Source: Candidatus Hermodarchaeota archaeon
GTDB lineage: Archaea; Asgardarchaeota; Lokiarchaeia; Sigyniarchaeales; SOKP01
Reading direction: 5' to 3'
NCBI GenBank assembly: GCA_048885525.1
Contig: JBHLLP010000030.1
Location: 1-42,554, forward strand
DNA length: 42,554 nt
Shown: positions 1 to 39,747 of the stretch, in pieces
How the letters are laid out: each line of letters starts with the position of its first letter
Position numbering within the stretch: the first letter of the stretch is position 1
Notes under the pieces: model-generated
The model's input: the letters and a program-made list of their open reading frames with translations, nothing else
Database searches by the model: none
What the model was told of the DNA's origin: nothing
Translations under genes and position numbers: made by a program

Positions 1-2136
1 CATGGTCCTGAAGATTTTGAAGTTGGTGTAGCAAATAATATTCCTGTTTTTACTCCTGTAAATATAAGGGGAGAATATACAAAAGATGCAGGAAAATTCA
101 AAGGAAGGTTTGTTTTTGATACTAATGAAGAGATTTTAGAATTGCTAAAACAAAAAGGTACTTTAATATTAACTAATGAAATCGAACATGAATATGCTCA
201 TTGTTGGCGTTGTGATTCAAAATTAGTTTATCGAGCAACAAACCAATGGTTCTTTAAAACAGAAAGTCTTGTTACTGAATTATTAGAAAAGAATGCAGAG
301 ATTTATTGGGTTCCTGACTGGGCGGGAAATAGATGGTTTAAAAGTTGGTTAAGTTCATTAAAAGATTGGTGTATTTCAAGACAACGCTTTTGGGGTATTC
401 CTCTTAGTGTTTGGATATGTGATAATGAAGATTGTAAAGACACCACAGTAATAGGGTCAGCTAAAGAATTAAAAGAGGTAGCTGGAGAATGTCCAGAAGA
501 TTTACATCGTCCTTGGATTGATGAAGTCACGTGGAAATGTAAAAAATGTGATAATGGTATAAAGAGAAGAATTCACGATATTTTAGATGTTTGGTTAGAT
601 TCAGGTTCAGTAATGTGGGCTGCCCAAGAAGTTTATGACGGTAAAAGTCATTTTGAATCGTGGATTCCCGCGGATTTTATACTTGAAGGGAAAGATCAGA
701 TTAGAGGTTGGTTTAATACACTCTTATGTAGCGCAATGGTATCATCAAGGCGTAAAAATTATGATGCTTGTTATATGCATGGGTGGACTCTAAGAGAAAA
801 ACTTAAAATGAGTAAATCAAAAGGAACTCAAATTTTACCAGAAGATCTTATCGATGGTACCTTAGATGAGCTTAAAAAAAATAAATCTTATTCAAAAATA
901 AAAGGAGTTGAAACATTTCGTTTTTATTCGATTGGAGTAACTCAACCTGGAAGAGATTTTAATTTTGTGGTTAAAGAATACGCAGATACGTATAAAGTCA
1001 TCAATACTATCTGGAATGTTTTTGTTTATGCTAATGAAAAATTTAATTTAGCGAGATTTGACCCTGCTAAGATAGAACTGGAAGAAAGTTCTCTTAGTAA
1101 ACTAGATAAATGGATGCTTTCAAGATTGCATTCTACAATAAAGAAAATTACTGAATTAGCTGACAATTATGAGTTACCTTGGATTACGGGTGAATTACGA
1201 GATTTAATTGTAAATGATATAAGTAGGTGGTATATAATGCTAAATCGAGAAAGAATTGATATTTATTCTGAAGATCCTGATAAATTAACTATAATGCTAG
1301 TGTTATTCAAAACATTATTTGATGTTCTTTTGATGTTATCACCTGTAAATCCAATGTTAAGTGAAGAAATATTTTTAAAAATGTTTAAGCCATATTGCAA
1401 ATCTCTAGGTTTAGACGAAACAGAAAGTATACATTTACAAAACTGGCCTGAGTTCGATGAAAAACTAATAAATCCAGAATTGGAAAAACAAATGCATTTT
1501 ATGCGAGATTTAATAGAAGATATTCGAGCTTTAAAGGAAGAATATAAAATAAGATTAAGATGGCCGAATAGAAAAATAATCATAGAACCAAAAGAGGATA
1601 TGCCAGAGATAATTTTCCCTCAAATAATTAAACAGATTGCCAACGTCAAGGAATTAGAGATTAAAGAGCGTGTTCAAGAACATGAAAATTTAGTTAAAGC
1701 GGAATCAAAATATTGCAATATTTATTTGGATAAATCTGTTGATGATAATTTATTAGCTGAACGAGTAATTAATGATTTAATAAGAAATGTCCAATTTATT
1801 CGTAAAAAAAATGGATATACAGTTGAAGAAAAAATATCTTTAATGATTGGAGCGAATACACCTTATTTAAAAGGTTTTCTTGAAAAATTTCAAGATACAA
1901 TAAAAGAGAAAATTAATATTGAAAACCTTGAAATCGTTTCTGGAGATTTGGCAGAAGAAAAAGGTAAAATTTTTGGTAAATTAAATATATGCCCTAATAG
2001 AGAATGCTCGGCGGCACTAAAAGATAATATTATTTTAAAATTTAAGAAGAAAACAGAAGTTAAATGTCCACACTGTAATTCAGATCTAAAAAAGAATGCA
2101 ATTAATTCAGTATCATTTAGTTTTGAGAAAAAATAG
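1..2136 (+). CDS. ileS: Isoleucyl-tRNA synthetase, archaeal/eukaryote-type, 5'-truncated by the window edge
   Basis: Frame is open from base 1 (HGPEDFEVG). Motifs YAHCWRC, QWF, DWCISRQRFWGIP, DVWLDSGS, EGKDQIRGWF and class I KMSKS. The TTG at 142 is internal, not the start. Confidence 0.96.
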   Translation, partial: HGPEDFEVGVANNIPVFTPVNIRGEYTKDAGKFKGRFVFDTNEEILELLKQKGTLILTNEIEHEYAHCWRCDSKLVYRATNQWFFKTESLVTELLEKNAEIYWVPDWAGNRWFKSWLSSLKDWCISRQRFWGIPLSVWICDNEDCKDTTVIGSAKELKEVAGECPEDLHRPWIDEVTWKCKKCDNGIKRRIHDILDVWLDSGSVMWAAQEVYDGKSHFESWIPADFILEGKDQIRGWFNTLLCSAMVSSRRKNYDACYMHGWTLREKLKMSKSKGTQILPEDLIDGTLDELKKNKSYSKIKGVETFRFYSIGVTQPGRDFNFVVKEYADTYKVINTIWNVFVYANEKFNLARFDPAKIELEESSLSKLDKWMLSRLHSTIKKITELADNYELPWITGELRDLIVNDISRWYIMLNRERIDIYSEDPDKLTIMLVLFKTLFDVLLMLSPVNPMLSEEIFLKMFKPYCKSLGLDETESIHLQNWPEFDEKLINPELEKQMHFMRDLIEDIRALKEEYKIRLRWPNRKIIIEPKEDMPEIIFPQIIKQIANVKELEIKERVQEHENLVKAESKYCNIYLDKSVDDNLLAERVINDLIRNVQFIRKKNGYTVEEKISLMIGANTPYLKGFLEKFQDTIKEKINIENLEIVSGDLAEEKGKIFGKLNICPNRECSAALKDNIILKFKKKTEVKCPHCNSDLKKNAINSVSFSFEKK

Positions 2137-3197: not shown

Positions 3198-3374
3198 ACT
3201 CTACTATAAATTATTAATTTTAGATATTTTAATAGTTCATAAGTTATTATTTAAATTAAAGGATATGATTAACCAATAAAAATGAATTAGTTTATTGATT
3301 ACTTATAAAAAGACTATTCAAATTTTTTAATGATTTAATATGAAGAAACTTGATTTTCAATACTGGTGATTTAT

Positions 3375-4385
3375 ATGATAATCCGTTCAAAAGCACCATT
3401 CAGAGTAAGTTTTGGTGGAGGAGGCACAGATATGGCACCATATTGTATTGAACATGGGGGATGTGTACTAAGTACTACCATTGATCGTCATATCTATGTA
3501 ACTTTAAAACCACGACAAGATAAAATTGTTCATATTAATGCACTTAAACTGAATAAACAATTTTCTTTTAAAGTCGGAGATAGAGATTACTCTACTGATT
3601 TCGAATTATTTAAAGGGATTTTTAATGTTTTAGAAATAAAGGATGGTTTTGATATAATGGTATATTCGGAACTTCCTCCTGGTTCTGGAATGGGAGGATC
3701 TTCTTCTTTATCAGTAGCATTAATCGGAGCTCTAAATAAATATTATAATTTAGATTTATCTAAACATGAAATTGCCAAAAGTGCATGTAATATTGAACGT
3801 ATAGAATTAAAACAGAAAGGAGGATATCAAGATCAATTCGCAGCAGCTTATGGTGGTTTAAATTTTATTGAGTTTAGACAAGATGTGAATGTAATTCCTA
3901 TAAATGCTAGTGAAGAAATGCTAAATGAGCTCCAATTTCGATTAATTTTATGTTATATTGGAGGTTCACATTTTTCTTCTGACATACAAGATGAAGTATT
4001 AAAGGGATATAAAGTTGAAAAGAAATCCTATTTAGAAGCTATGCAAGATCTAAAAGATGTTGCTCATTCTATGAGAGAAATCGTGGAATCTAACAATTTA
4101 AGTAATTTAAATGAATTTGGAGAACTCTTACACAAAGGCTGGATAGCAAAAAAGAGTTTAAGCACTAAAATATCAAATAAGAATATTGAAAATTTTTATT
4201 TAACTTCAAGAGAATTTGGTGTCTTAGGAGGAAAATTATTAGGCGCTGGTGGAGGAGGTCACTTATTATTATTTTCAGAGCCAAATCAGAAACCTAAAGT
4301 AATTCAAGAGTTAGAAAAAATTGGAGGTAAAATTATTAATTTTCATTTTAATCCAAAAGGTCTTGAAGTATGGGACATTAAGTAA
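3375..4385 (+). CDS. hddA: GHMP-family D-glycero-alpha-D-manno-heptose-7-phosphate kinase
   Basis: RSKAPFRVSFGGGGTD, PPGSGMGGSS, GYQDQFAAAYGG, GKLLGAGGGG; adjacent to gmhA. ATG 3375 follows SD GGTGA (3365-3369). Confidence 0.88.
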   Translation: MIIRSKAPFRVSFGGGGTDMAPYCIEHGGCVLSTTIDRHIYVTLKPRQDKIVHINALKLNKQFSFKVGDRDYSTDFELFKGIFNVLEIKDGFDIMVYSELPPGSGMGGSSSLSVALIGALNKYYNLDLSKHEIAKSACNIERIELKQKGGYQDQFAAAYGGLNFIEFRQDVNVIPINASEEMLNELQFRLILCYIGGSHFSSDIQDEVLKGYKVEKKSYLEAMQDLKDVAHSMREIVESNNLSNLNEFGELLHKGWIAKKSLSTKISNKNIENFYLTSREFGVLGGKLLGAGGGGHLLLFSEPNQKPKVIQELEKIGGKIINFHFNPKGLEVWDIK

Positions 4386-4416
4386 ATTTAAATAATCAAA
4401 TAGAAAAGATGATAAT

Positions 4417-4983
4417 ATGGAAAATGAAATTATCTCAATTTTAGATGAAAGTGTTAAAGTAAAAGAAGGGATTAAGAATTTAACTCCTATTATTATAAAA
4501 ATCTCTAATAAAATAATAGATGCTTATAAAAATAAGAAAAAGGTTGTTCTTTTCGGTAATGGTGGAAGCGCAGCAGATGCACAACACATAGCAGCTGAAT
4601 TTGTTGGAAAATTCTATAAAGATCGAGATTCACTCCCTTCTTTAGCCTTTCATACAAATACATCTGTTCTTACAGCAACAGCCAATGATTACGGTTATGA
4701 CTTAATATTTGAAAGGCAAGTGTCTTCATTTGTTGAAAAAGGAGACATTGTTATTGGAATTAGTACTTCTGGAAATTCTCCAAATGTGATAAAGGGATTA
4801 ATAAAGGCTAAAGAAAAAGGAGCAATAATAATAGGTTTCACGGGTGAAAAAGCAAGTAAAGTTGAAGAAATTGTAGATTTCTGTTTGAAGATACCATCTT
4901 CCGATACTCCAAGAATTCAAGAAGGTCATATTACTGTTGGTCATATTATTTGTTATTTAGTTGAGAAAGAACTTTTTGGGTAA
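4417..4983 (+). CDS. gmhA: Phosphoheptose (sedoheptulose-7-phosphate) isomerase
   Basis: GNGGSAADAQHIAAE, ANDYGYDLIFERQ, STSGNSPN, TPRIQEGH. Confidence 0.96.
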   Translation: MENEIISILDESVKVKEGIKNLTPIIIKISNKIIDAYKNKKKVVLFGNGGSAADAQHIAAEFVGKFYKDRDSLPSLAFHTNTSVLTATANDYGYDLIFERQVSSFVEKGDIVIGISTSGNSPNVIKGLIKAKEKGAIIIGFTGEKASKVEEIVDFCLKIPSSDTPRIQEGHITVGHIICYLVEKELFG

Positions 4984-4993
4984 GTATTAATTT

Positions 4994-5629
4994 ATGAAAA
5001 AAATTGCAGTTTCTGTTCATGCAATAGATAATTTTACACCAGATATTGTTAAAGGTTTAAAAGATTTTGATTACATCCATGTAGACGTAATGGATGGTAA
5101 ATTTGTAGATAATATAAATAATAATCTAAATGTTTTTCGTCTATTAAAAGAAACTTATAACATTCCTATAATCGCCCATTTAATGGTAATTAAGCCATCT
5201 GATTATATAGAGAAAATAATTCATGATATTGATATTTTTTTATTTCATTTTGAAATTGAAGATGATATCGAGAAGATAATAGAAAAAGTTAGATTTTATA
5301 AAAAAAAAGTAGGTTTGGCATTAAATCCAGAGACAGAAATTTCTGAAATTTTGCCTTATATGAAAGAAATTGATTTAGTTTTAATAATGAGCGTATCTCC
5401 TGGTTGGTCAGGGCAGAAATTCATCCCAAAGACTACAAAAAAAGTATATCAGTTAGCTGAATTCAAGAAAAAGTATAACTTTCTTATCGATGTTGATGGG
5501 GGAATTGATTTAACAAACGCAAAATTATTAAAAAATGCAGATATCTTATCAAGCTCAAGTACTATTCTAAAAGCTCAAGATCCTAATAGAGTAATTAAAT
5601 TACTTAGAGAATCTGATGAAAATGACTGA
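4994..5629 (+). CDS. rpe: Ribulose-phosphate 3-epimerase
   Basis: [38 protein letters not shown]. Confidence 0.92.
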
Positions 5630-6164
5630 AAAAAACAGGGCAATTTTTTTGGATAGAGATGGAGTAATAAATAAAGAAGTAAATTATCTTTCAGATCCAA
5701 AAGATTTTAAATTTATTGATGGTTCAATTGACGCTTTAAAAATTCTCAAACGAAAAAGCTACTTATTAATTATTATTACTAATCAAGCCGGCATAGCGAG
5801 AGGTTTATTTACCGAAGAATCTCTTAAGACAATTCATAATAAGATGATTGGAATATTAAGGCAACATAATATAGAATTAGATGATATTTATTATTGTCCC
5901 CACCATCCAGAATTCACTGGACCATGTGATTGTAGAAAACCTAACCCTGGAATGATTCTACAAGCACAAATAAATCATAATATCGATCTTACTAATTCTT
6001 ATATGGTTGGAGATACATTGAATGATATTCAAACTGGCAAAAACGCAAATTGTAAAACTGTTTTAGTTTTAACGGGTTATGGAAAGGAAGAACAAAATCA
6101 AATTGGTTCTATAATACCGGATATGATATTTAAAAACTTAAAAGAATTTGCTATAAATTTATAA
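5616..6164 (+). CDS. gmhB: D,D-heptose 1,7-bisphosphate phosphatase (HAD)
   Basis: [23 protein letters not shown]...CDCRKP zinc loop, MVGDTLND. Start could be 5622. Confidence 0.92.
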
Positions 6165-6208
6165 TACAAATTATTATTATAATCACTAAACGATACTCGT
6201 GAAATATA

Positions 6209-6865
6209 ATGAAATTTTTTATTGATACAGCTAATTTAGAACAAATAAAAGAGATGCAAGAATTAGGGATTATAGATGGAGTCACAACTAACCCAACATT
6301 ATTAGCAAAAGAAGGGGCTGATCCAACTGAACAATTACGAAAAATTTGTGAACTTGTTAATGGTCCAGTCAGTGGAGAAGTTGTTGGGTTAACTACTGAA
6401 GAAATGGTTAATGAGGCTCGTGAATTAGCAAAAATCGCTCCAAATATAGTAGTTAAAATTCCTTTTACAAAAGATGGGATTAAAGCTGTTAAAATTCTTG
6501 AACCAGAAGGAATTAAAACGAATGTAACACTTGTTTTTTCTCAGAATCAAGTTTTAATAGCCGCAAAAGCTGGAGCATCATACATAAGCCCTTTTATAGG
6601 GAGGTTAATGGATAATGGGCAAAATGAAATTGATATGCTTTGGGAATCGATGGAAATTCTTCGTGCTTATAATTTTAAATCTGAAATAATTGCTGCTTCT
6701 ATTAGGAATAGTAGACATGTCATTGAATCTGCTAAGATGGGAGTGCATATCGCCACAATTCCGTTTGCGGTTCTTGAAAAAATGTTTAAACACCCTAATA
6801 CTGATCAGGGATTAGAAGCATTTCTTAAGGATTGGGAAAAATTACAAAATGAATTAAAGAAGTAA
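6209..6865 (+). CDS. tal: Transaldolase (short TalC/FSA family)
   Basis: [20 protein letters not shown] Schiff-base Lys, NVTLVFS, SPFIGR, AASIR. Confidence 0.92.
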
Positions 6866-6874
6866 CTTAAGAAT

Positions 6875-7870
6875 ATGGCACTAATTGACGAGATTACCAA
6901 ATGGAAAAATAAGAAAGTATTGATCATTGGTGATACTCTAATAGATAAGTATATCTTTGGATATACTGATAGAATTTCTCCTGATGCTCCAGTTCCAAAT
7001 GTAAAAATAGAGAATAGTAGTATTTATATAGGAGCGACTGGATTGGTTTTACAATTTGTACAATCTTTGGGGGGAATCCCTGAAGTTTGTAGTATTATTG
7101 GTAATGATTTTGAAGGAGATTTTTTCTTAAAAAAAATAAAACAGTTAAAAGTAGATTCTTCTGGTATTCTTGTAGATGAAAATGTAAGAACCCCTCAAAT
7201 TACACGAATAAAAGCAATGAATCAACATCTCTTACGTTTGGAAACAGATTATAATGGTGATATTTCTCAACAAATCAGAGAAAAATTCAAAGATCTCATT
7301 ATGAACAGATCTCAAGATATAGGAGCAATAATGATATTAGATTATGGTTTAGAAGGAATTTTTGAAGATCATTTTATTCAGAATTTAATACGGGATTTAA
7401 AAGAAAATTATAAGGCACCAATAATTGTCCGCCCTACAAAATCTAATTATTATCTCTATGAAGAAGTCGATTTAATTAAGATGAATCTTCAGAAAGCTTT
7501 AGATATTTTTTCAATTGATTGCTGTAATGAAACGAGTGTAGCAATAGCAGGAAAGAGGATTTTAAACTCTTCTAGGTGTAAAAATGTTTTGCTAAATTTT
7601 CTTGAACGTGACTCTTCTCTCTTTTCAAGAGAAAGTGAATATGTAGAAAAATTCAGTCCAATTTTGCAACAACCAGTTAGAAGTTATGTAGCTGTTGGTA
7701 GTGTTATAATGGCGACATTGGGATTATCGTTTGCTTCGGGAATTTCTATTTCAAATGGTGTGAAAATTTCTCTTTCTGCTGCCGCTCTTACAGCAATCCT
7801 CCCTCCTGTTGAATTCTATGATACTGAAAAACTTCATAATTTCATAATAAAAACAATGAATAAAGCATAA
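6875..7870 (+). CDS. RfaE/HldE-kinase-domain-like PfkB protein with degenerate catalytic motif
   Basis: N-terminus VLIIGDTLIDKYIFG-x-TDRISPDAPVP, TRIKAMNQHLLRLE and LDYG match the RfaE kinase domain; the C-terminal GAGD motif reads AVGS. Confidence 0.75.
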   Translation: MALIDEITKWKNKKVLIIGDTLIDKYIFGYTDRISPDAPVPNVKIENSSIYIGATGLVLQFVQSLGGIPEVCSIIGNDFEGDFFLKKIKQLKVDSSGILVDENVRTPQITRIKAMNQHLLRLETDYNGDISQQIREKFKDLIMNRSQDIGAIMILDYGLEGIFEDHFIQNLIRDLKENYKAPIIVRPTKSNYYLYEEVDLIKMNLQKALDIFSIDCCNETSVAIAGKRILNSSRCKNVLLNFLERDSSLFSRESEYVEKFSPILQQPVRSYVAVGSVIMATLGLSFASGISISNGVKISLSAAALTAILPPVEFYDTEKLHNFIIKTMNKA

Positions 7871-7891
7871 TTTACTCACTTAACTAGTATT

Positions 7892-8746
7892 ATGGAATTG
7901 TCTAAAGCTGAAGAACGGGAAATATTAACAGAAATACTGGATATTAAAAAAGATATATTAACAATGATTTATACTGCCCAATCTGGTCACCCCGGAGGGT
8001 CACTGTCATGTGTTAATATGATCTACCTTCTTTATAACAATATTATGAGAATAAACCGTGAAGATCCTAAATGGAAAGAAAGAGATATTTTTATTTTAAG
8101 TAAAGGACACGCAGCTCCTGCACTTTATGCAGTTCTTTCTAGGTTTGGTTTTATCAAGAGAGAAGAATTATTTACTTTAAGACAGTTTGGTTCGAAATTA
8201 CAAGGACATCCAGTAAAAAATCCCGAAATTGGAATAGAAATATCAACGGGTTCGTTAGGAATGGGATTATCTATTAGTATAGGATGTGCTTTATCAGCAA
8301 AATTAGATAGAGCAGATAAGTATATTTATGTTTTACTCGGTGATGGTGAATTAAATGAAGGTGCTATTTGGGAAGCCGCGATGGCAGCGAGTCATTACAA
8401 ACTGGACAATTTAATTGCAATTGTAGATCGGAATGGAATCCAGACAGATGGATCAACAGAAGAAATAATGGCTTTAGAACCATTAGCCGAAAAATGGAAA
8501 GCATTTGGTTGGGAAGTTATTGAAAGTGATGGTTCAAATTTATCAGAAATGTTACAAGGATTTGAAAGAGCAAAAACTATAATCGGTAGACCTAAAGTGA
8601 TTATATCTTATTTAATAAAAGGAGCAGATGTCTCTTTTATGCAACATACACGAAAATACCATGGAAGAGCACCTAATAAAGAGGAATATGAAATTGCTCT
8701 TAGAGAACTTGAAGATATGAAAATCAAATTAGGTGGAGGAACTTAA
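7892..8746 (+). CDS. Transketolase, N-terminal (TPP-binding) subunit
   Basis: SGHPGGSLS, LSKGHAAPALY, LQGHP, STGSLGMG, GDGELNEGAIWE...N TPP motif, HGRAP. Confidence 0.95.
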   Translation: MELSKAEEREILTEILDIKKDILTMIYTAQSGHPGGSLSCVNMIYLLYNNIMRINREDPKWKERDIFILSKGHAAPALYAVLSRFGFIKREELFTLRQFGSKLQGHPVKNPEIGIEISTGSLGMGLSISIGCALSAKLDRADKYIYVLLGDGELNEGAIWEAAMAASHYKLDNLIAIVDRNGIQTDGSTEEIMALEPLAEKWKAFGWEVIESDGSNLSEMLQGFERAKTIIGRPKVIISYLIKGADVSFMQHTRKYHGRAPNKEEYEIALRELEDMKIKLGGGT

Positions 8747-8750
8747 AAAG

Positions 8751-9674
8751 ATGTCTGAGCCTCTTCTTAGAGATACTTTTGGTGATTATTTAGTTGAAAT
8801 AGGAAAAACAAATAATAATATCGTAGTATTAGATGCTGATTTATCTAGTTCTACAAGAACATATAAGTTTGCTAAAGCTTTTCCTGAACGATTTTTCAAT
8901 ATGGGAATTGCTGAACAAAATATGTTAGGAACAGCGTTAGGTCTTGCAATCTCGGGAAAAATACCAGTAGTAAGTGGATTTTCTATATTCACGACTGGAA
9001 GAGCATGGGAATTTATAAGATTTGCCTGTCATGATAATTTAAATGTAAAAATAATAACTACGCATGGTGGGTTCGTTGGAGAAGATGGTAGTACACATAA
9101 TGCTTTAGAAGACTTGAGTCTTATGGCATCTCTTCCAAATATAAAAGTCTTAATCCCTTCAGATAATATTGAACTTACTCAAATATTAGATTATGCACTT
9201 ACTCATCAGGGTCCGTTTTACATTAGATTACCAAGAGGAACTTTTCCGAAAATTCATACTCAAAAATATAAATTTACTTTGGGTTACCCCGATATTATTA
9301 AAGAAGGTGATGATATATGTTTAATTGGAACTGGATATGGGAGTATTTTGGCATTAAAATCAGCTAAATCAATTGAAAAAGAACAAAAAATTACTATAAA
9401 GGTAATTAATTTTCCAAGTATTAAACCTATTGATGAAAAATCTCTAATTAAAGAGTTAGAAACAATCTCTCAGATTGTTATCATTGAAGAGCACAACATA
9501 TACTGTGGTTTTGGAAGCATAATCGCAAGAATTTTTTCAGAGTATGATCCAAAAATAATCAAATTCATAGGCATTCACAACTCATTTGGAGAATCTGGGA
9601 AAAGAAGTATATTATTAAATTCATTTGGTTTAAGTGAAAAGTCAATTATAGAACAAATAAAAAAGATTATTTAA
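8751..9674 (+). CDS. Transketolase, C-terminal subunit
   Basis: DADLSSST, GIAEQNM, GEDGSTHNALED, GPFYIRL, EEHNIYCGFGS. ATG 8751 after GGTGGAGG is preferred over GTG 8733. Confidence 0.94.
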   Translation: MSEPLLRDTFGDYLVEIGKTNNNIVVLDADLSSSTRTYKFAKAFPERFFNMGIAEQNMLGTALGLAISGKIPVVSGFSIFTTGRAWEFIRFACHDNLNVKIITTHGGFVGEDGSTHNALEDLSLMASLPNIKVLIPSDNIELTQILDYALTHQGPFYIRLPRGTFPKIHTQKYKFTLGYPDIIKEGDDICLIGTGYGSILALKSAKSIEKEQKITIKVINFPSIKPIDEKSLIKELETISQIVIIEEHNIYCGFGSIIARIFSEYDPKIIKFIGIHNSFGESGKRSILLNSFGLSEKSIIEQIKKII

Positions 9675-9701: not shown

Positions 9702-10235
9702 TTAATGTGGCAGAAATCCCATATAATTTAATGCTTCTAAGATGATATTTTTACTTTCTTCAACGGTTTGTTTATCCGTTTCGACAATAATATCTGGGTC
9801 ATCAGGTTCTTCAAAAGGGTGGTCTATTCCGGTAAAATCCTTTATTTCTCCAGTTCTTGCTTTTGCATACATCCCTTTAATATCCCGATTTTCACATTCT
9901 TCAAGTGAACACTTTACATACACAAGAATGTAATCTCCAATCTCTTCTCGAGAATATGCTCTAATTTTATTATATGGTGATACAAAAGAAGCAAGAACAG
10001 CGACTCCATTACGAGTTAAAAGTTTAGCTACAAATGTTACTCTTTCAATGTTCATATTTCGGTCTTCTTCAGTAAATCCCAAGTCTTTTGTTAAGCTCTT
10101 TCTAACAATATCTCCATCAAGTCTTTCTACTTTCATACCTCTTGCTTTTAAATCTTCTGCTACTGCATTTGCAAGGACAGTTTTTCCTGAGCAAGGCAGT
10201 CCTGTAAACCATAATGTAAATCCTTTATGTTCCAT
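9702..10235 (-). CDS. cysC: Adenylyl-sulfate (APS) kinase
   Basis: WFTGLPCSGKT P-loop, LDGDIVR, LGFTEEDR, RDIKGMY, FTGIDHPFEEP. Confidence 0.96.
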   Translation of the reverse strand: MEHKGFTLWFTGLPCSGKTVLANAVAEDLKARGMKVERLDGDIVRKSLTKDLGFTEEDRNMNIERVTFVAKLLTRNGVAVLASFVSPYNKIRAYSREEIGDYILVYVKCSLEECENRDIKGMYAKARTGEIKDFTGIDHPFEEPDDPDIIVETDKQTVEESKNIILEALNYMGFLPH

Positions 10236-10256
10236 ACTTCTTCCTTTACTTTTTAT

Positions 10257-11651
10257 TTAAAAATCTATGATACTGCCTTCCATATCCTTAGGAATATCAA
10301 CTCCTAAAATTTTTAAAGATGTTGGAGCAATATCAAGTATACTCTTAATTCCTAAATTTTTCCCTACCCTTTTTGTAGGGTCATATAAAATATAAACACC
10401 AAACCAATCATGCACAGCGTCATCTGGTCCAGTATCATTTTCATCTAAATACATTGAATCATATCCAACTGTTCCGGCGGATCTCCAATTTAGATCATCA
10501 AAATAAACCATAAGATCTGGAGCGTCACCATTAATAATATTGAATAACTCCTCGGGTCTATAAACAATAGTGTCCATTGGATTTCCATTGTTGTCCTTTA
10601 TTGATTTTATTTTTTTTATAATTTTTTCTCTCATTTTTTCATAATCTTCTTGCTTTATAATCCCATGAGGTTCTCTCCCTTCAATATTAAGAAAGATTCT
10701 CGCGTAATATCCTCCCCAACCCCAAGCATAAGTATTATCCCAATCAATATCTGCATCTGCTAGTCTTGTTCTTGGTTTTGGTCTACTTTTAAACTTTAAT
10801 AACCCCAAACTTTCAAGAGCCATATTCACACATACCAAACCTTTCATAGCCTTAGCACCATGATCAGATACAATCATAACAAATGTTTTATTATCCAATA
10901 AATCTAATATTTCTCCAATTTCATGATCTAAATATTGATAATATTTCCTCATCTCTCCTTCAAACTCATTACTCGGTTCATATTTAGGGTGTTCTTTGTC
11001 GTAATACTTCCAAAAAGCGTGGTGAAATCTATCTAATCCGATAATTACAAATTTGAAATAATTCCAGTCTTTAGTCTGTATTAAATATTTGACAGTCTTT
11101 AATTGGATTTTCGTCATTTCATAGATTTCTTCCATTAAAACTTTCTTGTTTTCAACCCTAAAATTAGCATCTAAAATATATTTTCCCACATTTTGTTTAA
11201 TTTCATCTTTTAATTCTGGAGGGTATGTATAATTTGAGCTTATATCTGGTGTGATAAACCCTGATACGAGACATCCATTTATGGGTTGAACAGGATATGT
11301 TGGAGGGATTCCTAAAATACAAGATTTTAAGCCTTTTTCTGCTATTATATCCCAAACTTTTGGTTCTTTAATTTTGTAAGAAGTTGCAATCCAAAAGTCG
11401 TCATATGAATTCTCTTTTCTATGTCTAAAACCAAATAATCCTAAAGTTCCAGCTTTCTTACCAGTAGACATTACCATCCAAGCAGGAATGGTAATTGGGG
11501 GATCACATGTTCTTAATTTTCCATATCCTCCTTTTTCCATCATTTTCTTTATGTTAGGGCAATCATCCAAGAAATCTTCGAATAAAGTTTTGGGTGTTGC
11601 ACAGTCTAATCCAATAACTATCAGTTTCTTTTTATTTTTCATTATTACCAT
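10257..11651 (-). CDS. AlkP-superfamily (nucleotide pyrophosphatase/phosphodiesterase-like) metalloenzyme
   Basis: IGLDC, PPITIPAW (Thr nucleophile position), DRFHH, VSDHG, DAVH, DIAPT. No signal peptide seen. Start may be 11642. Confidence 0.88.
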   Translation of the reverse strand: MVIMKNKKKLIVIGLDCATPKTLFEDFLDDCPNIKKMMEKGGYGKLRTCDPPITIPAWMVMSTGKKAGTLGLFGFRHRKENSYDDFWIATSYKIKEPKVWDIIAEKGLKSCILGIPPTYPVQPINGCLVSGFITPDISSNYTYPPELKDEIKQNVGKYILDANFRVENKKVLMEEIYEMTKIQLKTVKYLIQTKDWNYFKFVIIGLDRFHHAFWKYYDKEHPKYEPSNEFEGEMRKYYQYLDHEIGEILDLLDNKTFVMIVSDHGAKAMKGLVCVNMALESLGLLKFKSRPKPRTRLADADIDWDNTYAWGWGGYYARIFLNIEGREPHGIIKQEDYEKMREKIIKKIKSIKDNNGNPMDTIVYRPEELFNIINGDAPDLMVYFDDLNWRSAGTVGYDSMYLDENDTGPDDAVHDWFGVYILYDPTKRVGKNLGIKSILDIAPTSLKILGVDIPKDMEGSIIDF

Positions 11652-11683
11652 ATATATTATAATTTATTAAAATACAAAAAAAT

Positions 11684-12832
11684 TTAAGATACAAATGGAT
11701 TTTCGTATTGTAAGATTACTTTTGCAACTTCAGGACGCATAACTTCGGGATCTGGAGGATTTCCCGATTGTAACGCCAATCTTATTTCCGTTCCAGCAAA
11801 ATAATTCTGGAATTCAGGAGGATGGGGACAAATTTTATCATTTACCACGGAATCACACTTTGAACATTTAGAAAATGATCTAAACTTAATTGGTTCGATA
11901 CCTAAATCTGGAAATTTATCAAAAATATCATGAGCATCATAGGGTCCATAATAATCTCCGACTCCTGCGTGATCTCTACCTATTATAAGATGGTCACAAC
12001 CAAAATTCTTTCTTGTTATAGCATGGAAAACGGCTTCCTTAGGACCAGCATATCTCATTTCAGTTTCAAAAGTGCTTAATACTACTCTATTTTTTGGATA
12101 ATATTCTTTTATAAGGACTTTGTATGCTTCAATTATAACTTCATCTAGAAAATCACCTAATTTCTTTTTTCCAATAACAGGATTGATAAATAGACCATCT
12201 ACATAAGTTAACCCTGCTTTCTGAACATATTCATGCCCTAAATGAGGAGGATTTCTCGTTTGAAACGCAACAACTCTGTCCCAGCCTTTTTCTTTAAATA
12301 ATACTCTTGTTTCAATAGGTTTTAAATCTAAATCTGGGAAAGTTGCCTTTGGTTCATTAATTAAAAAAGTCTCACCCCCAATAAGTTTTTCTTTATAATT
12401 GAAGACGTTATTAACTCCAGGATGATTCTGATCTAATGTACCATATGTTTTTTTAGCAAATTCTTTTTTATCATAATTATAAATCGTCTCTACATTCATT
12501 AGTGCAATTGGAACTCCACTAGCGTTTGTAAGGATTATTTTATCATCTAATCCTATATTTTTAAGTTCTTCATTAGACACGTCCAGCGTAATTGGAAATG
12601 GCCAAACAACATTATTCTCTAGATACATAGTATCCAATACATAATGATAATCATTTTCATTCATGAATCCCTCTAAGGGGCTAAAAAGACCAAAGGAGAT
12701 GTTCTTAATCACTTTAAGTGTCTCTGGTTTCACTGCAATTTTCTCAAATTCATTAATCTCTCCTTTAATCCTTTCTTTTTCAAATTTTGGTAATTCCTTA
12801 TTTACTAATGTTCCACCATGTGGTTTTATCAT
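11684..12832 (-). CDS. sat: Sulfate adenylyltransferase (ATP sulfurylase)
   Basis: PHGGTLVN, FSPLEGFM, AFQTRNPPHLGHE, MRYAGPKEA, GRDHAGVG, C-terminal CxxC...CPH zinc site. Confidence 0.97.
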   Translation of the reverse strand: MIKPHGGTLVNKELPKFEKERIKGEINEFEKIAVKPETLKVIKNISFGLFSPLEGFMNENDYHYVLDTMYLENNVVWPFPITLDVSNEELKNIGLDDKIILTNASGVPIALMNVETIYNYDKKEFAKKTYGTLDQNHPGVNNVFNYKEKLIGGETFLINEPKATFPDLDLKPIETRVLFKEKGWDRVVAFQTRNPPHLGHEYVQKAGLTYVDGLFINPVIGKKKLGDFLDEVIIEAYKVLIKEYYPKNRVVLSTFETEMRYAGPKEAVFHAITRKNFGCDHLIIGRDHAGVGDYYGPYDAHDIFDKFPDLGIEPIKFRSFSKCSKCDSVVNDKICPHPPEFQNYFAGTEIRLALQSGNPPDPEVMRPEVAKVILQYENPFVS

Positions 12833-12886
12833 ATAATCTCATTATCCATTTAAATTTATTCAAATTTATACAAAAATTTTCAATAA

Positions 12887-13126
12887 TCAATCAATATACC
12901 CTAAATCCCTTAACCTTTGTTTGACTTTTTCTTCTTCTTCCTTAGTAAACGCTTGTTTTGTTCGTTCCTCTTCTTCAATTGAAGATATAACTTGCCTAAG
13001 AACATAGGTAACATAACTAGATACAGAAGAAAATCCAGTTCCCTTCATTCGTTCCTTTATCTTTTCTACAAGAGGTTTAGGAATTGATACAGTAGTATAT
13101 TCTACCTTATGATCATCATCAGACAT
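12887..13126 (-). CDS. Ribbon-helix-helix (CopG/Arc-like) protein with acidic RLxxLGY C-terminal tail
   Basis: YTTVSIP beta-strand, helix, GFSSVSSYVTYVLR second helix; tail FTKEEEEKVKQRLRDLGYID. ATG 13126 preferred over TTG 13141. Confidence 0.85.
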   Translation of the reverse strand: MSDDDHKVEYTTVSIPKPLVEKIKERMKGTGFSSVSSYVTYVLRQVISSIEEEERTKQAFTKEEEEKVKQRLRDLGYID

Positions 13127-13188
13127 TTTTTCATGTACCAAATTTTTTCTATATGATTTTAGAATTTAATTATATTTAATTAATTATA

Positions 13189-13214
13189 ATTATAAACTTT
13201 TCTGATCTGAAAAG
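13189..13214 (-). promoter_or_regulatory. Candidate BRE-TATA promoter of the RHH-sat-AlkP-cysC operon overlapped by an 18-bp near-palindrome
   Basis: Minus strand reads CTTTTCAGATCAGAAAAG-TTTATAAT: purine-rich GAAAAG (13202-13197) directly before TTTATAAT (13196-13189), about 63 nt upstream of the RHH ATG. Confidence 0.5.
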
Positions 13215-13254
13215 ATATTTTTAAATACAGAAAATAGGTTTAAAACCGCAATGA

Positions 13255-17504: not shown

Positions 17505-18908
17505 TTAACGATTTTCAACTTCCCAAATTTTTTCACCCCAATAATCTGCAGGGTACCTATAATCATCTCCTTTACTCTCTTCCAAAGAACTAGTTGAAAA
17601 GAAAACTATTCTTGTATCTTCTTCTAATGGTCTAAATCCATTAGCATATTTCGGTGGTATAAAGAGGATCTGAGGATTCTTATCAGAAATAACATATCGG
17701 TGAACTTCTTGGTGTTTTGAGGGAGATTTTATATTATCTAATTTTACAGCAGCTATTATAGCTGAACCCTTAGCAACATATACATACTTGGCTTCATTAA
17801 GATGACCATGAAAAGCTCGAATTGTAGATGTAGAGAAATTCTTAACTTGATAAAACCTTTTAACACCAAAAAAATTAAAATCATTTGCAAACGAAACTGT
17901 ACCCCGATCATCGATAGCAATTCCCCCTGGAATTAAAAGAATTTCTCTTTTTCCAATTGTTTCTGCGATCTTAACTCTTTCAGCTAATTTTAAATTTGAA
18001 TATATACCTTTATGCATTTCGAAAACTGTTGGAGATTTCATAATTTCAATTACAGCATCTTCAATATTATATTTAAATTCATACCCAGAATTAACTAATT
18101 TTGAACTATCAACCATATAACTTCGTTTATCTACTATATTTTTATCAATTTCTACTTCGCATTTAGTAATATCTTTTACAATTTCTCCCAATTTTAAAAG
18201 GCTTAAATTTTCCCCTTTTACGTTAAAAATACCTTTTAAATCATTTTTAATCACATGAACAATTGTTCTTGAGATATCTTTAACATGAACAAAAGGGCGT
18301 TCTTGTTGACCTCCAAATATTGTAATTTTTTTAAATTTTACAGCTCTCCCTGCAAATGCATTTACAACTAAATCATATCGCATTCTTGGACTTAATCCAT
18401 AAGCAGTTCCTAAACGTAAAATACAATAATTATCTTTGCATACTTCTCTAATAATACGTTCTTGAGTATATTTAGTTTGCCCATAAAAATCAATAGGAAA
18501 TCCCTCATCTTCTTCTTTTACAACTACATTAGGTTCACTTCCATATATACTGCATGTGCTAATATGAATAATTTTTTTATTATATTTTTTACAAATTTCA
18601 GCAATATTTCTAGTTCCAATGCAATTTATTTCAATAGCAAGATTTGTATCGATTAAACAAGCTGGATCACCTACTATTGCTGCTAAATTAACGATTATAT
18701 CAAACTTTTGGATAATCTTTTGAATTTCATCCTTATTTCTTATATCTACTTGGATAAATGGATTAACGGGTGTAAGATCCTTATATAAATGGTTGTCTAA
18801 AATTTCTACTTCCATACTTTCTTTTTTGACAAAATCATATAACACACTACCAATATATCCTAATCCACCTAAAATAAGTATATTTGAAGTCATTTTTCCT
18901 ATTACCAT
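17505..18908 (-). CDS. Fusion of NAD-dependent epimerase/dehydratase SDR and C-terminal RmlC-like cupin
   Basis: GGLGYIG, STCSIYG, YGQTK; C-terminal DDRG...KRFY...RAFHGH...PPKYANGF cupin. Confidence 0.85.
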   Translation of the reverse strand: MVIGKMTSNILILGGLGYIGSVLYDFVKKESMEVEILDNHLYKDLTPVNPFIQVDIRNKDEIQKIIQKFDIIVNLAAIVGDPACLIDTNLAIEINCIGTRNIAEICKKYNKKIIHISTCSIYGSEPNVVVKEEDEGFPIDFYGQTKYTQERIIREVCKDNYCILRLGTAYGLSPRMRYDLVVNAFAGRAVKFKKITIFGGQQERPFVHVKDISRTIVHVIKNDLKGIFNVKGENLSLLKLGEIVKDITKCEVEIDKNIVDKRSYMVDSSKLVNSGYEFKYNIEDAVIEIMKSPTVFEMHKGIYSNLKLAERVKIAETIGKREILLIPGGIAIDDRGTVSFANDFNFFGVKRFYQVKNFSTSTIRAFHGHLNEAKYVYVAKGSAIIAAVKLDNIKSPSKHQEVHRYVISDKNPQILFIPPKYANGFRPLEEDTRIVFFSTSSLEESKGDDYRYPADYWGEKIWEVENR

Positions 18909-24003: not shown

Positions 24004-24897
24004 ATGAAATTATTAGTGGTACTTGTAAATTATGGAACAAAACAACTGAAATATCTGGAAAAGATGATTAATGAATTTCAATCAATGAAATTTGAAGTAG
24101 ATATTGTTATACATTCAAATATTGCCTTAGATTATGAAAATGTTGAAGTGAAAGTAATAAAGTTAGATAATTATGAACACTTACCATTTACTACAAGAAA
24201 GACAATCTATGAAAGAAGATATGATTATGATTTATATATTTACTCCGAAAATGATCATCTTATTACTCAGAAAAACATAGAATCCTTTTTGAAAGTCACA
24301 GAGATTCTTCCAAAAAATTATATTGCTGGTTTTTTTCAATTTGAAAAGCACGATGGGAAAGCATTTTATCCTGCCTATCATAAAAATTTTAGATGGGATA
24401 TTGAAAATGCATTTAAGATTGGTGATTATATATTTGCTCAATTTACTAATGTTCATCAAGCAAGTTTCATACTGACAAGAAAACAGCTAAATAGAGTAAT
24501 AAACAATTTTGATTTTTTGAATGAAACTTTTAAAACAAAATACTCACTTAAATACAGATTAGGCGAATCTTTTTGGCATAGATTTAGAAAATTCTATAGA
24601 AAGTATTTAAATCGATATTATCATTTTTCACGTAAAAATTTTATTCTTTCATTATTCAATAGATTTATTGAAAATAACGATTTTTTAAATAATATTTTAA
24701 ATTTAAATTATTCAATAAAATGTAGAGCTGGAACTGATATCTACATGTATGCGGGTCTCAAAAAAGTTATTCCAATTTCTCATTTTGATGATTTTTTAAT
24801 TCATCATATGCCTAATAATTACAAAGGACGTCTAGGTAAATCTAATAATTATATGAGAAAAGAAATTGAAAAGATTATAAAAAAGTTAGGAAGATAG
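24004..24897 (+). CDS. Hypothetical protein, probably GT-A fold glycosyltransferase
   Basis: YDLYIYSENDHLI (ExD at the DxD position), C-terminal LIHHMPNNY; glycan-locus context. Confidence 0.55.
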   Translation: MKLLVVLVNYGTKQLKYLEKMINEFQSMKFEVDIVIHSNIALDYENVEVKVIKLDNYEHLPFTTRKTIYERRYDYDLYIYSENDHLITQKNIESFLKVTEILPKNYIAGFFQFEKHDGKAFYPAYHKNFRWDIENAFKIGDYIFAQFTNVHQASFILTRKQLNRVINNFDFLNETFKTKYSLKYRLGESFWHRFRKFYRKYLNRYYHFSRKNFILSLFNRFIENNDFLNNILNLNYSIKCRAGTDIYMYAGLKKVIPISHFDDFLIHHMPNNYKGRLGKSNNYMRKEIEKIIKKLGR

Positions 24898-39312: not shown

Positions 39313-39747
39313 TTAACCTTTGACTTTTACACTTTCTTTCTTACTTTCCTGTTCCTTATTCTTTTCGGTAGGACTTTTCAATCTTACAGAGTATATTTGC
39401 TTTATCTCCATTAAGTCCTCACACTTTTCGCACTTATCTTTCCTCTTAAAGACAAAATCTCCTTTTTCATAATTTCTAACCTTTGTAAGTCCACATAATT
39501 TACAGATTAGAATTGTTAGAGTTTGTCTTATGGGTTCAGCAGGACTTTTTTGGAATTGAATTAATGTAGCCCCAAAACAAATTAATATAAAACCAATTGA
39601 CCAACTTGAGATTTGATCGGGTCCAAAATCAAGATAAATGAATAGAACTCCAACAACTATTAATATAATAAACAAAATGTTTTTTAAAATGCTTTTAAAA
39701 GTTATTCTTTTTTTTAATATTTCCTCATCGTCTTCTTCTTCAATCAT
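39313..39747 (-). CDS. Small membrane protein with C-terminal zinc ribbon
   Basis: Two hydrophobic helices, then CKLC...R.Y..GD.V...CEKC. Confidence 0.75.
   Translation of the reverse strand: MIEEEDDEEILKKRITFKSILKNILFIILIVVGVLFIYLDFGPDQISSWSIGFILICFGATLIQFQKSPAEPIRQTLTILICKLCGLTKVRNYEKGDFVFKRKDKCEKCEDLMEIKQIYSVRLKSPTEKNKEQESKKESVKVKG

Follow-up and report, generated by a model that had tools for sequence, protein, structure and literature searches.

A 42,554-nucleotide stretch of DNA from a Candidatus Hermodarchaeota archaeon (contig JBHLLP010000030.1, positions 1 to 42,554, hereafter called the window) carries a four-gene cassette for a small ribbon-helix-helix (RHH) protein, the ATP sulfurylase Sat, an enzyme of the alkaline phosphatase (AlkP) fold and the adenosine 5′-phosphosulfate (APS) kinase CysC. 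Sat and CysC make 3′-phosphoadenosine 5′-phosphosulfate (PAPS), and the AlkP enzyme most likely acts on this PAPS branch, not merely in the removal of pyrophosphate (PPi). Modeling further supports a docking of the C-terminal tail of the RHH protein on the active-site cleft of the AlkP enzyme, with the LGY end of the tail at the catalytic center. Tentatively, we favor a role in which the enzyme transfers the sulfuryl group of PAPS with the involvement of that tail. The cassette is an Asgard member of an already published cluster, copG-sat-(pApase)-NPP-cysC, given that gene content, order and co-direction match; here, NPP stands for nucleotide pyrophosphatase/phosphodiesterase and pApase for a phosphatase of 3′-phosphoadenosine 5′-phosphate (PAP or pAp). 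Many archaea, among them Asgard relatives of eukaryotes, and several phyla of bacteria obtain their PAPS mainly through such cassettes, and the enzymes identified so far for archaeal glycan sulfation are sulfatase look-alikes only.

Results

The four genes run in one direction on the minus strand, in the order RHH-sat-AlkP-cysC and with spacers of 21, 32 and 54 nt:

9702..10235, minus strand: cysC, APS kinase, 177 aa (Pfam APS_kinase, 200 bits; TIGR00455, 227 bits)
10257..11651, minus strand: AlkP gene, NPP-type (PF01663), COG3379-like, 464 aa (PF01663 Phosphodiest, 151 bits)
11490..11492, minus strand: codon of Thr54, the predicted nucleophile in ‘PPITIPAW’, inside the predicted tail interface
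11684..12832, minus strand: sat, homo-oligomeric ATP sulfurylase, 382 aa (PUA_2 and ATP-sulfurylase domains, Pfam 283 and 158 bits; NF003166, 485 bits)
12887..13126, minus strand: small CopG/RHH-like gene, 79 aa (likely ATG at 13126, as in homologues)
12890..12952, minus strand: coding segment of the ‘LGY’ tail, the last 21 residues of the RHH protein and its most conserved part

Alternative starts are an upstream TTG at 13141 for the RHH gene (84 aa; open reading frame (ORF) 12887-13141) and M4 at position 11642 for the AlkP gene (461 aa). An earlier note on this DNA had described an RHH-sat-AlkP-cysC operon in a glycan locus, which the family scores of cysC, the AlkP gene and sat and the tight minus-strand spacing of all four genes confirm. 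It had also seen no P-loop sulfotransferase, CysH (PAPS/APS reductase) or sulfite reductase in 42 kb; a Pfam scan covering every window ORF of at least 90 aa (42.5 kb; two ORFs without a family) agrees, with no match to any of the three. Its description of the AlkP protein, with intact metal ligands, a Thr at the nucleophile position and no CxPxR motif, likewise holds. Across 58 aligned sequences, the most distant of them at 31% identity, D16, D207, H211, D263, H264 and H414 are retained as NPP-type ligands, position 54 is T in 50/58 and S in 5/58 family members, and seven arginines are conserved as well (R76, R78, R165, R208, R318, R326 and R390).

The AlphaFold2 model of the AlkP protein (predicted local distance difference test (pLDDT) 96) has its nearest solved folds in ENPP4, Xanthomonas NPP, ENPP6 and ENPP7 (Z 30, root mean square deviation (rmsd) 3.2-3.4, 339-348 residues), followed by phosphonoacetate hydrolase (Z 26) and sulfatases (Z 21-25), with 13-18% identity in all fold matches; no PDB entry is related to the protein by sequence. 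By its fold, six metal ligands and Thr nucleophile it belongs to the NPP/type I phosphodiesterase family (PF01663), and it is predicted to be a cytosolic two-metal enzyme, with no signal peptide, that uses Thr54 as nucleophile. Other identities were rejected. A formylglycine sulfatase (PF00884, S1) is incompatible with Thr54 in ‘PPITIPAW’, with the lack of a CxPxR motif and with a PF00884 Sulfatase score of 23.2 bits, below the cut-off of 25. A classical PAPS sulfotransferase (PF00685, PF03567, PF13469) is excluded by the absence of a Pfam match and by the AlkP/NPP fold, and the same NPP fold places the protein outside the pAp phosphatase folds (CysQ/Inositol_P, DHH of the NrnA or MtPAPP type, and PHP type).

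The AlkP family comprises 13,101 representative clusters at E<=0.001; identity to the Asgard orthologues is 69-88%, and between bacteria and archaea ~50%. A survey of sat/cysC neighborhoods, which the earlier note had put forward as a check along with one of fusions, was carried out on 80 loci from named genomes found with a 12-sequence AlkP alignment, counting neighbors within 3.5 kb. RHH, Sat and CysC all accompany the AlkP orthologue in 30/80 loci, arranged as in the window, Sat and CysC in 16 and other combinations of RHH, Sat, CysC and DHH in 20; at least one of RHH, Sat and CysC is a neighbor in 66/80 loci, and the 14 loci with none are mostly from Verrucomicrobia, where the layout is GT2 - AlkP - GHMP kinase - AlkP paralogue, or on short contigs. 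The hosts of the cassette include Asgard, Bathyarchaeia, Aminicenantes, Eubacteriales, Nitrososphaerota, Hadarchaeota, Thermoplasmatota and DPANN, and surveyed AlkP-orthologue loci also come from Archaeoglobaceae and Anaerolineae. The cassette loci of Aminicenantes are outside glycan loci, with housekeeping genes on their flanks. Natural fusions join the AlkP domain to its neighbors in several ways (Sat-AlkP, APS kinase (CysC)-AlkP, AlkP-pyruvate kinase (PK) barrel-Sat and AlkP-PK), and further fusions are NTP_transferase-AlkP, AlkP-GT2 and AlkP-methyltransferase. Two loci with AlkP-PK barrel(-Sat) fusions (L088:7459-10914 and L089:1280-3640) have no APS kinase, and in L088 a Thr-type sulfatase-like gene and, just upstream of the fusion, a PQ-loop gene precede it, with a PHP phosphatase after it; possibilities for the PK domain are ATP supply or a substitute kinase.

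The tie to CysC was counted in Halobacteriota, the phylum with Archaeoglobi and haloarchaea. Among 301 sampled genomes of this phylum, 28 encode an AlkP orthologue (E<1e-150) and all 28 also have a strong CysC (E<=1e-52), nearly always within ~0.5 kb, compared with 9 of the 273 genomes that have no orthologue. In the sulfate-reducing Archaeoglobaceae, Sat is on another contig and the AlkP gene remains with CysC and a pApase. As a side observation, the APS_kinase matches of Halobacteriota form two groups, the true CysC at ~180-225 bits and proteins of ~180-250 aa at ~75-112 bits, the latter present in many genomes without the cassette.

Phosphatases for PAP are found in the same neighborhoods. 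A DHH gene directly precedes the AlkP gene in 7 loci, and the one DHH protein tested matches the Methanothermococcus thermolithotrophicus PAP phosphatase (PDB 8A8K) over its full length at E 4e-100. In 4 loci a PHP-type gene follows the AlkP gene; three are in the survey (L061, L062 and L072) and the fourth is the AlkP-PK-Sat locus L088, whose PHP protein matches 2YB1 at E 2e-29. A separate pAp phosphatase-type gene thus stands beside the AlkP gene in 11 loci (10 in the survey plus L088). Something other than a pApase therefore makes PAP nearby, and the presence of these phosphatases implies a PAPS consumer within the system. Fusions to Sat and CysC, the 28/28 link to CysC and the adjoining pAp phosphatases are the reasons why we favor a role on the PAPS branch.

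The same genes bear on an explanation already raised in the earlier note, that the AlkP enzyme recycles or degrades the nucleotides of the pathway, either as a PAP 3′-phosphatase (a CysQ analogue) or as an APS/PAPS hydrolase. In its favor, the nearest folds include structures of ENPP1, ENPP3 and ENPP4 with AMP-type ligands; pyrophosphate and phosphodiester bonds of nucleotides are the known targets of NPP enzymes, and cysQ-type genes are frequent in PAPS operons. However, the 11 loci with a separate pAp phosphatase-type gene, the two Inositol_P-family genes of the host genome and the futility of hydrolyzing APS or PAPS beside the enzymes that make them make this explanation very improbable; with DHH- or PHP-type pApases encoded alongside, PAP phosphatase was rejected as the main role of the enzyme. 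The DHH enzyme of the published clusters is, moreover, highly specific for pAp (PMC8268124).

The published work suggests a different function. In Pyrococcus yayanosii, pych_17520-17560 encode CopG, an ATP sulfurylase, a DHH pApase, a type I phosphodiesterase/nucleotide pyrophosphatase and an APS kinase; the authors ‘speculated’ that the NPP gene (PYCH_17550) serves PPi degradation, and they identify no sulfotransferase or sulfite-reducing enzyme (PMC8268124). The Thermococcus onnurineus counterparts of these four enzymes are TON_1704-1707, with TON_1705 listed as a pyrophosphatase (PMC4463584). For TON_1705, Table 1 of PMC9653972 gives a weak PPi hydrolysis in vitro with a kcat of 2.1 per s, a Km of 18.8 uM and a pH optimum of 9.5. 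The window AlkP enzyme could accordingly be a dedicated inorganic pyrophosphatase (PPase) that clears the PPi of Sat and pulls the unfavorable synthesis of APS, with the RHH tail only tethering or regulating it, perhaps by acting as a pseudo-substrate plug and so tying operon control to the PPi level. The original characterization of TON_1705 is reportedly that of Lee et al. 2009 (J Bacteriol 191:3415).

Besides the TON_1705 assay and the like reading of PYCH_17550 (PMC8268124), the PPase explanation gains from the Sat-AlkP and NTP_transferase-AlkP fusions, which pair the AlkP domain with PPi-producing enzymes, from AlkP-PK-Sat, which reads as pull plus ATP supply, and from ATP sulfurylase assays in M. 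thermolithotrophicus that were limited by pyrophosphatase (PMC10322725); the many conserved arginines suit a polyanion and the high conservation suits a small substrate. Nevertheless, the host has a canonical family I PPase, and the canonical enzyme of T. onnurineus, Ton1914, is ~10,000-fold faster than TON_1705 (PMC9653972). The orthologue tracks CysC in 28/28 genomes and stays with CysC and the pApase in Archaeoglobaceae, away from Sat. A PPase also leaves unexplained the fusions to CysC, GT2 and methyltransferase and those Verrucomicrobia loci that have neither sat nor cysC in the vicinity, and it is not evident why a PPase would require an invariant tail with a Tyr in the active site. The CysC link, the separation of Sat in Archaeoglobaceae and the family I PPase of the host therefore weaken this explanation, the main rival, which we regard as somewhat doubtful.

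The tail in question belongs to a protein with no Pfam match and a weak NikR-type NCBIfam match, whose AlphaFold2 model (pLDDT 82) has helices at residues 17-27, 35-58 and 62-75. The RHH protein ends in the invariant tail AFTKEEEEKVKQRLRDLGYID, and in an alignment of 32 archaeal and bacterial sequences with an RHH-like core, R71, L72, L75, G76 and Y77 are invariant, with a consensus for the last 21 residues of [FY][ST]xE[ED]Ex+[VI]KxRL+xLGY[IL][DE]. Among the 50 loci that extend 3 kb or more to either side of the AlkP gene, and counting any tail-carrying protein, a tail-bearing ORF lies at most 4 kb from the AlkP gene in 44, and farther away the tail occurs in 2 of 1653 ORFs. A whole-genome ORF search of the host found that the RHH ORF alone ends in L..LGY and detected the tail on no other protein.

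Elsewhere the tail sits on other carriers. It is found on the CysC of Anaerolineae, which have a Sat-AlkP fusion and lack the RHH gene there, on a Verrucomicrobia AlkP paralogue, on one AlkP orthologue, on small ORFs after the AlkP gene, on a sulfatase-like protein in a bacterial locus (L045), and on the Haloferax Agl7 candidate described below and its neighbor. It occurs in cis in 26/150 AlkP family representatives, including CysC-AlkP and AlkP-PK fusions, and in 0/120 Asgard orthologues. The constant neighbor of the LGY tail is the AlkP orthologue, and its presence on RHH proteins, CysC, AlkP paralogues and sulfatase-like enzymes marks the tail, judged by its sequence, as portable.

A complex of the AlkP protein with RHH residues 45-79, each with its own alignment, was modeled in three runs with three controls. 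Each run scored 0.87, compared with 0.02 for the best control, and the mark of 0.87 is reached by 58/80 solved complexes and 2/110 mismatched pairs. The runs share at least 91% of their contacts, with a partner pLDDT of 73-74. The modeled interface comprises AlkP residues 53-54, 74-76, 88-92, 119-120, 132-139, 161-165, 296-297, 312-314, 392-394 and 405-410, and thereby takes in I53, the nucleophile T54 and R76; tail residue Y77 contacts G74 and F75, and I78 contacts R76. Conservation is higher at the interface than in the remainder of the AlkP protein (0.63 versus 0.50, permutation p ~0.001), in part because the interface is close to the active site.

Within the host genome (3.58 Mb, 99.3% complete), family searches gave no match to the classical sulfotransferase families PF00685 and PF13469 or to the CysH and sulfite reductase families PF01507 and PF01077, so the canonical sulfotransferase that the earlier note had named as a possible alternative user of PAPS did not turn up in either family. 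A search with PF03567 also gave no match, but its control was silent in every genome and the negative therefore says little. The genome does encode the canonical family I PPase, the two Inositol_P-family genes and, outside the window, seven PF00884 sulfatase-like genes, three of which lack CxPxR. Four sulfatases (contigs C16, C8, C43 and C22) have an intact CxPxR and no signal peptide, and are presumably cytosolic for that reason. Thr-type sulfatase-like proteins are encoded on contigs C75, C77 and C17. On contig C75, a B12-binding radical-SAM-like ORF adjoins a Thr/Ser-type sulfatase-like gene.

Proven archaeal sulfation enzymes belong to the AlkP superfamily. Agl30 (VNG1056C) and Agl31 (VNG1057C) of Halobacterium salinarum are sulfatase-like members that sulfate N-glycan sugars, as found by deletion and heterologous expression in work that does not take up their donor (PMC11980604); in Haloferax volcanii, the sulfation of DolP-hexose requires Agl7 (HVO_2046) (PMC3892788). 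We located an Agl7 candidate in H. volcanii DS2 via RmlC (PF00908) of the agl cluster together with PF00884: G207:C1:1892437-1893654 encodes 405 aa, scores 66 bits for PF00884 and is 12 kb from the RmlC gene. Orthology between Agl7 and the window AlkP protein was rejected, given that the candidate is a PF00884 protein with no BLASTP match to the window protein at E<=0.01. A different gene (C1:663323-664603, 27% identity) encodes the homologue of the window AlkP protein in Haloferax; it is highly conserved and without conserved neighbors in four haloarchaeal genomes. The H. volcanii DS2 genome has no PF01747 Sat and no true CysC (a P-loop protein matches APS kinase at 24.6 bits); CysD/CysN was not searched.

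The Agl7 candidate and its neighbor both end in an LGY tail (...HLEALGYV and ...RLKDLGYKV). The neighbor (L142:5838-6728, ~300 aa, presumably HVO_2047) has no Pfam family and shares 30% identity over its full length with L007:2438-3388, a gene that adjoins the Thorarchaeota cassette. Thr/Ser-type sulfatase-like genes lie beside the cassette in this Thorarchaeota locus (L007) and in the bacterial locus L045, and another accompanies the AlkP-PK-Sat fusion of L088; the host genome has a relative on contig C75 (34% identity).

That the AlkP enzyme is itself an acceptor-specific glycan or lipid sulfotransferase, moving the sulfuryl group from PAPS to Thr54 and directly to a sugar with the RHH tail as a regulator only, would fit the glycan-locus setting in Asgard and Verrucomicrobia, the AlkP-GT2 and AlkP-methyltransferase fusions and the lack of another classical transferase among those searched for in the host genome. 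Identities of ~50% between bacteria and archaea and 68-88% among Asgard lineages are, however, unusual for a reader of variable glycans, some copies of the cassette, as in Aminicenantes, are not in a glycan locus, and candidates exist in the sulfatase branch, all of which leave a direct transferase of this kind distinctly unlikely.

The surroundings of the cassette are those of a glycan locus, with six glycosyltransferases, four methyltransferases, nucleotide-sugar enzymes and heptose and pentose-phosphate genes, and genes for a Wzt/Wzm-type ABC transporter are upstream on the same strand. The window has a GC content of ~28% and encodes archaeal-type phenylalanyl-tRNA synthetase subunits and an Rrp41-like RNase PH; the closest proteins to those of the window are labeled Promethearchaeota, Thor-, Odin- and Hodarchaeota. 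Positions 3366-9674 (plus strand) hold a complete gene set for sedoheptulose-7-phosphate and heptose nucleotides (GHMP kinase, GmhA-like SIS, ribulose-phosphate 3-epimerase, GmhB-like HAD, transaldolase, PfkB kinase and a split transketolase), of which the transketolase and transaldolase genes recur on the flanks of the cassette in the Odin and Thor loci L006 and L007. Positions 17505-18908 (minus strand) encode a 467-aa fusion of an NAD-dependent epimerase/dehydratase with a dTDP-sugar 3,5-epimerase-like domain. The two ORFs without a Pfam or NCBIfam family are at 24004-24897 (plus strand, 297 aa), among glycosyltransferase and methyltransferase genes, and at 39313-39747 (minus strand, 144 aa).

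The four cassette proteins share 68-87% identity with those of two other Asgard genomes (L001 and L003). The isoleucyl-tRNA synthetase (IleRS) of the window (1-2136) is 35% identical to the IleRS beside the cassette in L001 and L003, which are 76% identical to each other; this contrast reflects either horizontal movement of the cassette or two IleRS types. Upstream of the RHH gene there is one further feature:

13197..13214, no strand: imperfect palindrome CTTTTCTGA/TCTGAAAAG (inverted-repeat scan; within the 128 intergenic nt, 13127-13254, that precede the RHH gene)

The sequence ACAGAAAA recurs nearby at 13227-13234, and the palindrome is possibly an operator. A promoter and terminator scan of the cassette gave signals at background level and is uninformative for an AT-rich archaeon.

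Discussion

Here, we place an AlkP-fold enzyme most probably on the PAPS branch and propose, as a tentative scheme, how it could work. The enzyme would act with an ‘RLxxLGY’ tail that the RHH protein supplies in trans here and that is supplied in cis elsewhere. The tail helix would lie in the conserved AlkP groove with its LGY end at the catalytic center, PAPS would sulfurylate Thr54, and the sulfuryl group would then be passed to an acceptor. The tail tyrosine could be the first acceptor, or else an active-site or regulatory element. PAP would be cleared by the separate phosphatase, and the PPi hydrolysis of TON_1705 without its partner would be a side or uncoupled activity. The sulfate would end on the glycans of the surrounding locus, possibly via Thr-type sulfatase-fold transferases. 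In a more specific version, which we consider unlikely, the tail tyrosine would accept the sulfuryl group from PAPS or APS, and the resulting sulfotyrosine would be the aryl-sulfate donor, or swinging arm, of Thr-type, sulfatase-fold transferases like Agl7, Agl30 and Agl31; if true, such a sulfotyrosine relay would be a protein-borne, new route of biological sulfation and would explain how sulfatase-like proteins can work as archaeal sulfotransferases.

Sulfotransfer by the AlkP enzyme would fit the absence of a match to the classical PAPS consumers searched for in the host genome, where a canonical PPase is present, and the precedent of AlkP-superfamily proteins that act as archaeal glycan sulfotransferases (PMC11980604, PMC3892788). 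Several points weigh on the other side. The proven Agl7, Agl30 and Agl31 are in the PF00884 branch, with no significant BLAST similarity between the window protein and the Agl7 candidate. To our knowledge, sulfotransfer has never been shown for any PF01663 protein. Haloferax has the tail on its Agl7 candidate but no PF01747 Sat and no true CysC, and the Thr-type sulfatase-like proteins could, from their sequences, be alternative candidates for the actual glycan sulfotransferase. The 68-88% identity among Asgard lineages suits a small universal substrate, and the Sat- and NTP_transferase-AlkP fusions join the AlkP domain to PPi producers. The complex model may echo a learned intramolecular arrangement, because relatives carry the tail in cis. 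Finally, PPi hydrolysis by TON_1705 is the sole measured activity known for the AlkP family (PMC9653972, PMC4463584).

The sulfotransfer system suggested in the earlier note is therefore supported in part, in its link to the PAPS branch, through the fusions, the 28/28 link to CysC in Halobacteriota and the neighboring pApases, and is weakened as a sulfotransferase by the PF00884 membership of the proven archaeal enzymes, by the assay of TON_1705 as a PPase and by the Thr-type sulfatase-like candidates in the host genome and beside the cassette in relatives; the pAp phosphatases encoded beside the AlkP gene argue against its PAP-recycling alternative. If the AlkP enzyme uses PAPS and the tyrosine tail, it would represent a new sulfotransfer chemistry on the alkaline phosphatase fold and would provide the LGY tag with a partner. 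Should it be a PPase and nothing more, the PAPS consumer is still to be sought among the Thr-type sulfatase-like proteins.

Comparison with known systems

The Thermococcales cluster has the same gene families in the same order as the window cassette, and the five-gene form with DHH also occurs in Geoglobus, Thermoplasmatota and Hadarchaeota loci, with AlkP proteins 50-53% identical to that of the window. In contrast, the Asgard copy has no DHH gene and lies inside a glycan locus. TON_1705 and PYCH_17550 are likened to the window AlkP protein by gene order and annotation, from which we infer orthology. The papers on the Thermococcales cluster (PMC8268124, PMC4463584 and PMC9653972) are silent on the RHH tail and on any connection between it and the enzyme, and papers on sulfate assimilation in anaerobic methanotrophic archaea and on polysaccharide sulfotransferases yielded nothing on the AlkP enzyme. 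What is new here is the predicted tail partner, the co-location of tail and AlkP gene in 44/50 loci, the presence of CysC in 28/28 genomes with the orthologue, the separation of Sat in Archaeoglobaceae, the pAp phosphatases beside the AlkP gene in 10 surveyed loci and the place of Agl7 in another superfamily branch, together with a cassette that spans many archaeal and bacterial phyla, fusions included.

Among enzymes, the NPPs (ENPP1-7 and Xanthomonas NPP) and PhnA share the fold (Z 26-30, rmsd 3.2-3.5, 339-359 residues), the two-metal site and the Thr nucleophile with the window AlkP protein, which differs from them in its 13-17% identity, its cytosolic location, its additional conserved arginines and a groove, likewise conserved, in which a peptide tail is predicted to lie. 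The likeness to Agl7, Agl30 and Agl31 lies in an AlkP-superfamily fold used for sulfation rather than hydrolysis; the difference is one of branch, PF00884 sulfatase for these and PF01663 for the window protein, as tested on the Agl7 candidate. C-terminal extensions that pack on the catalytic domain are also known from AP-superfamily sulfatases such as choline sulfatase, where they bridge subunits. RHH proteins with partner-binding C-terminal extensions include type II antitoxins (ParD and RelB), Mnt and NikR, and the RHH protein of the cassette resembles them in that its RHH core is N-terminal and leads into a tail predicted to bind another protein. Unlike in ParD, RelB and the others, the tail is portable and is predicted at the catalytic center of an enzyme, and no toxin is involved.

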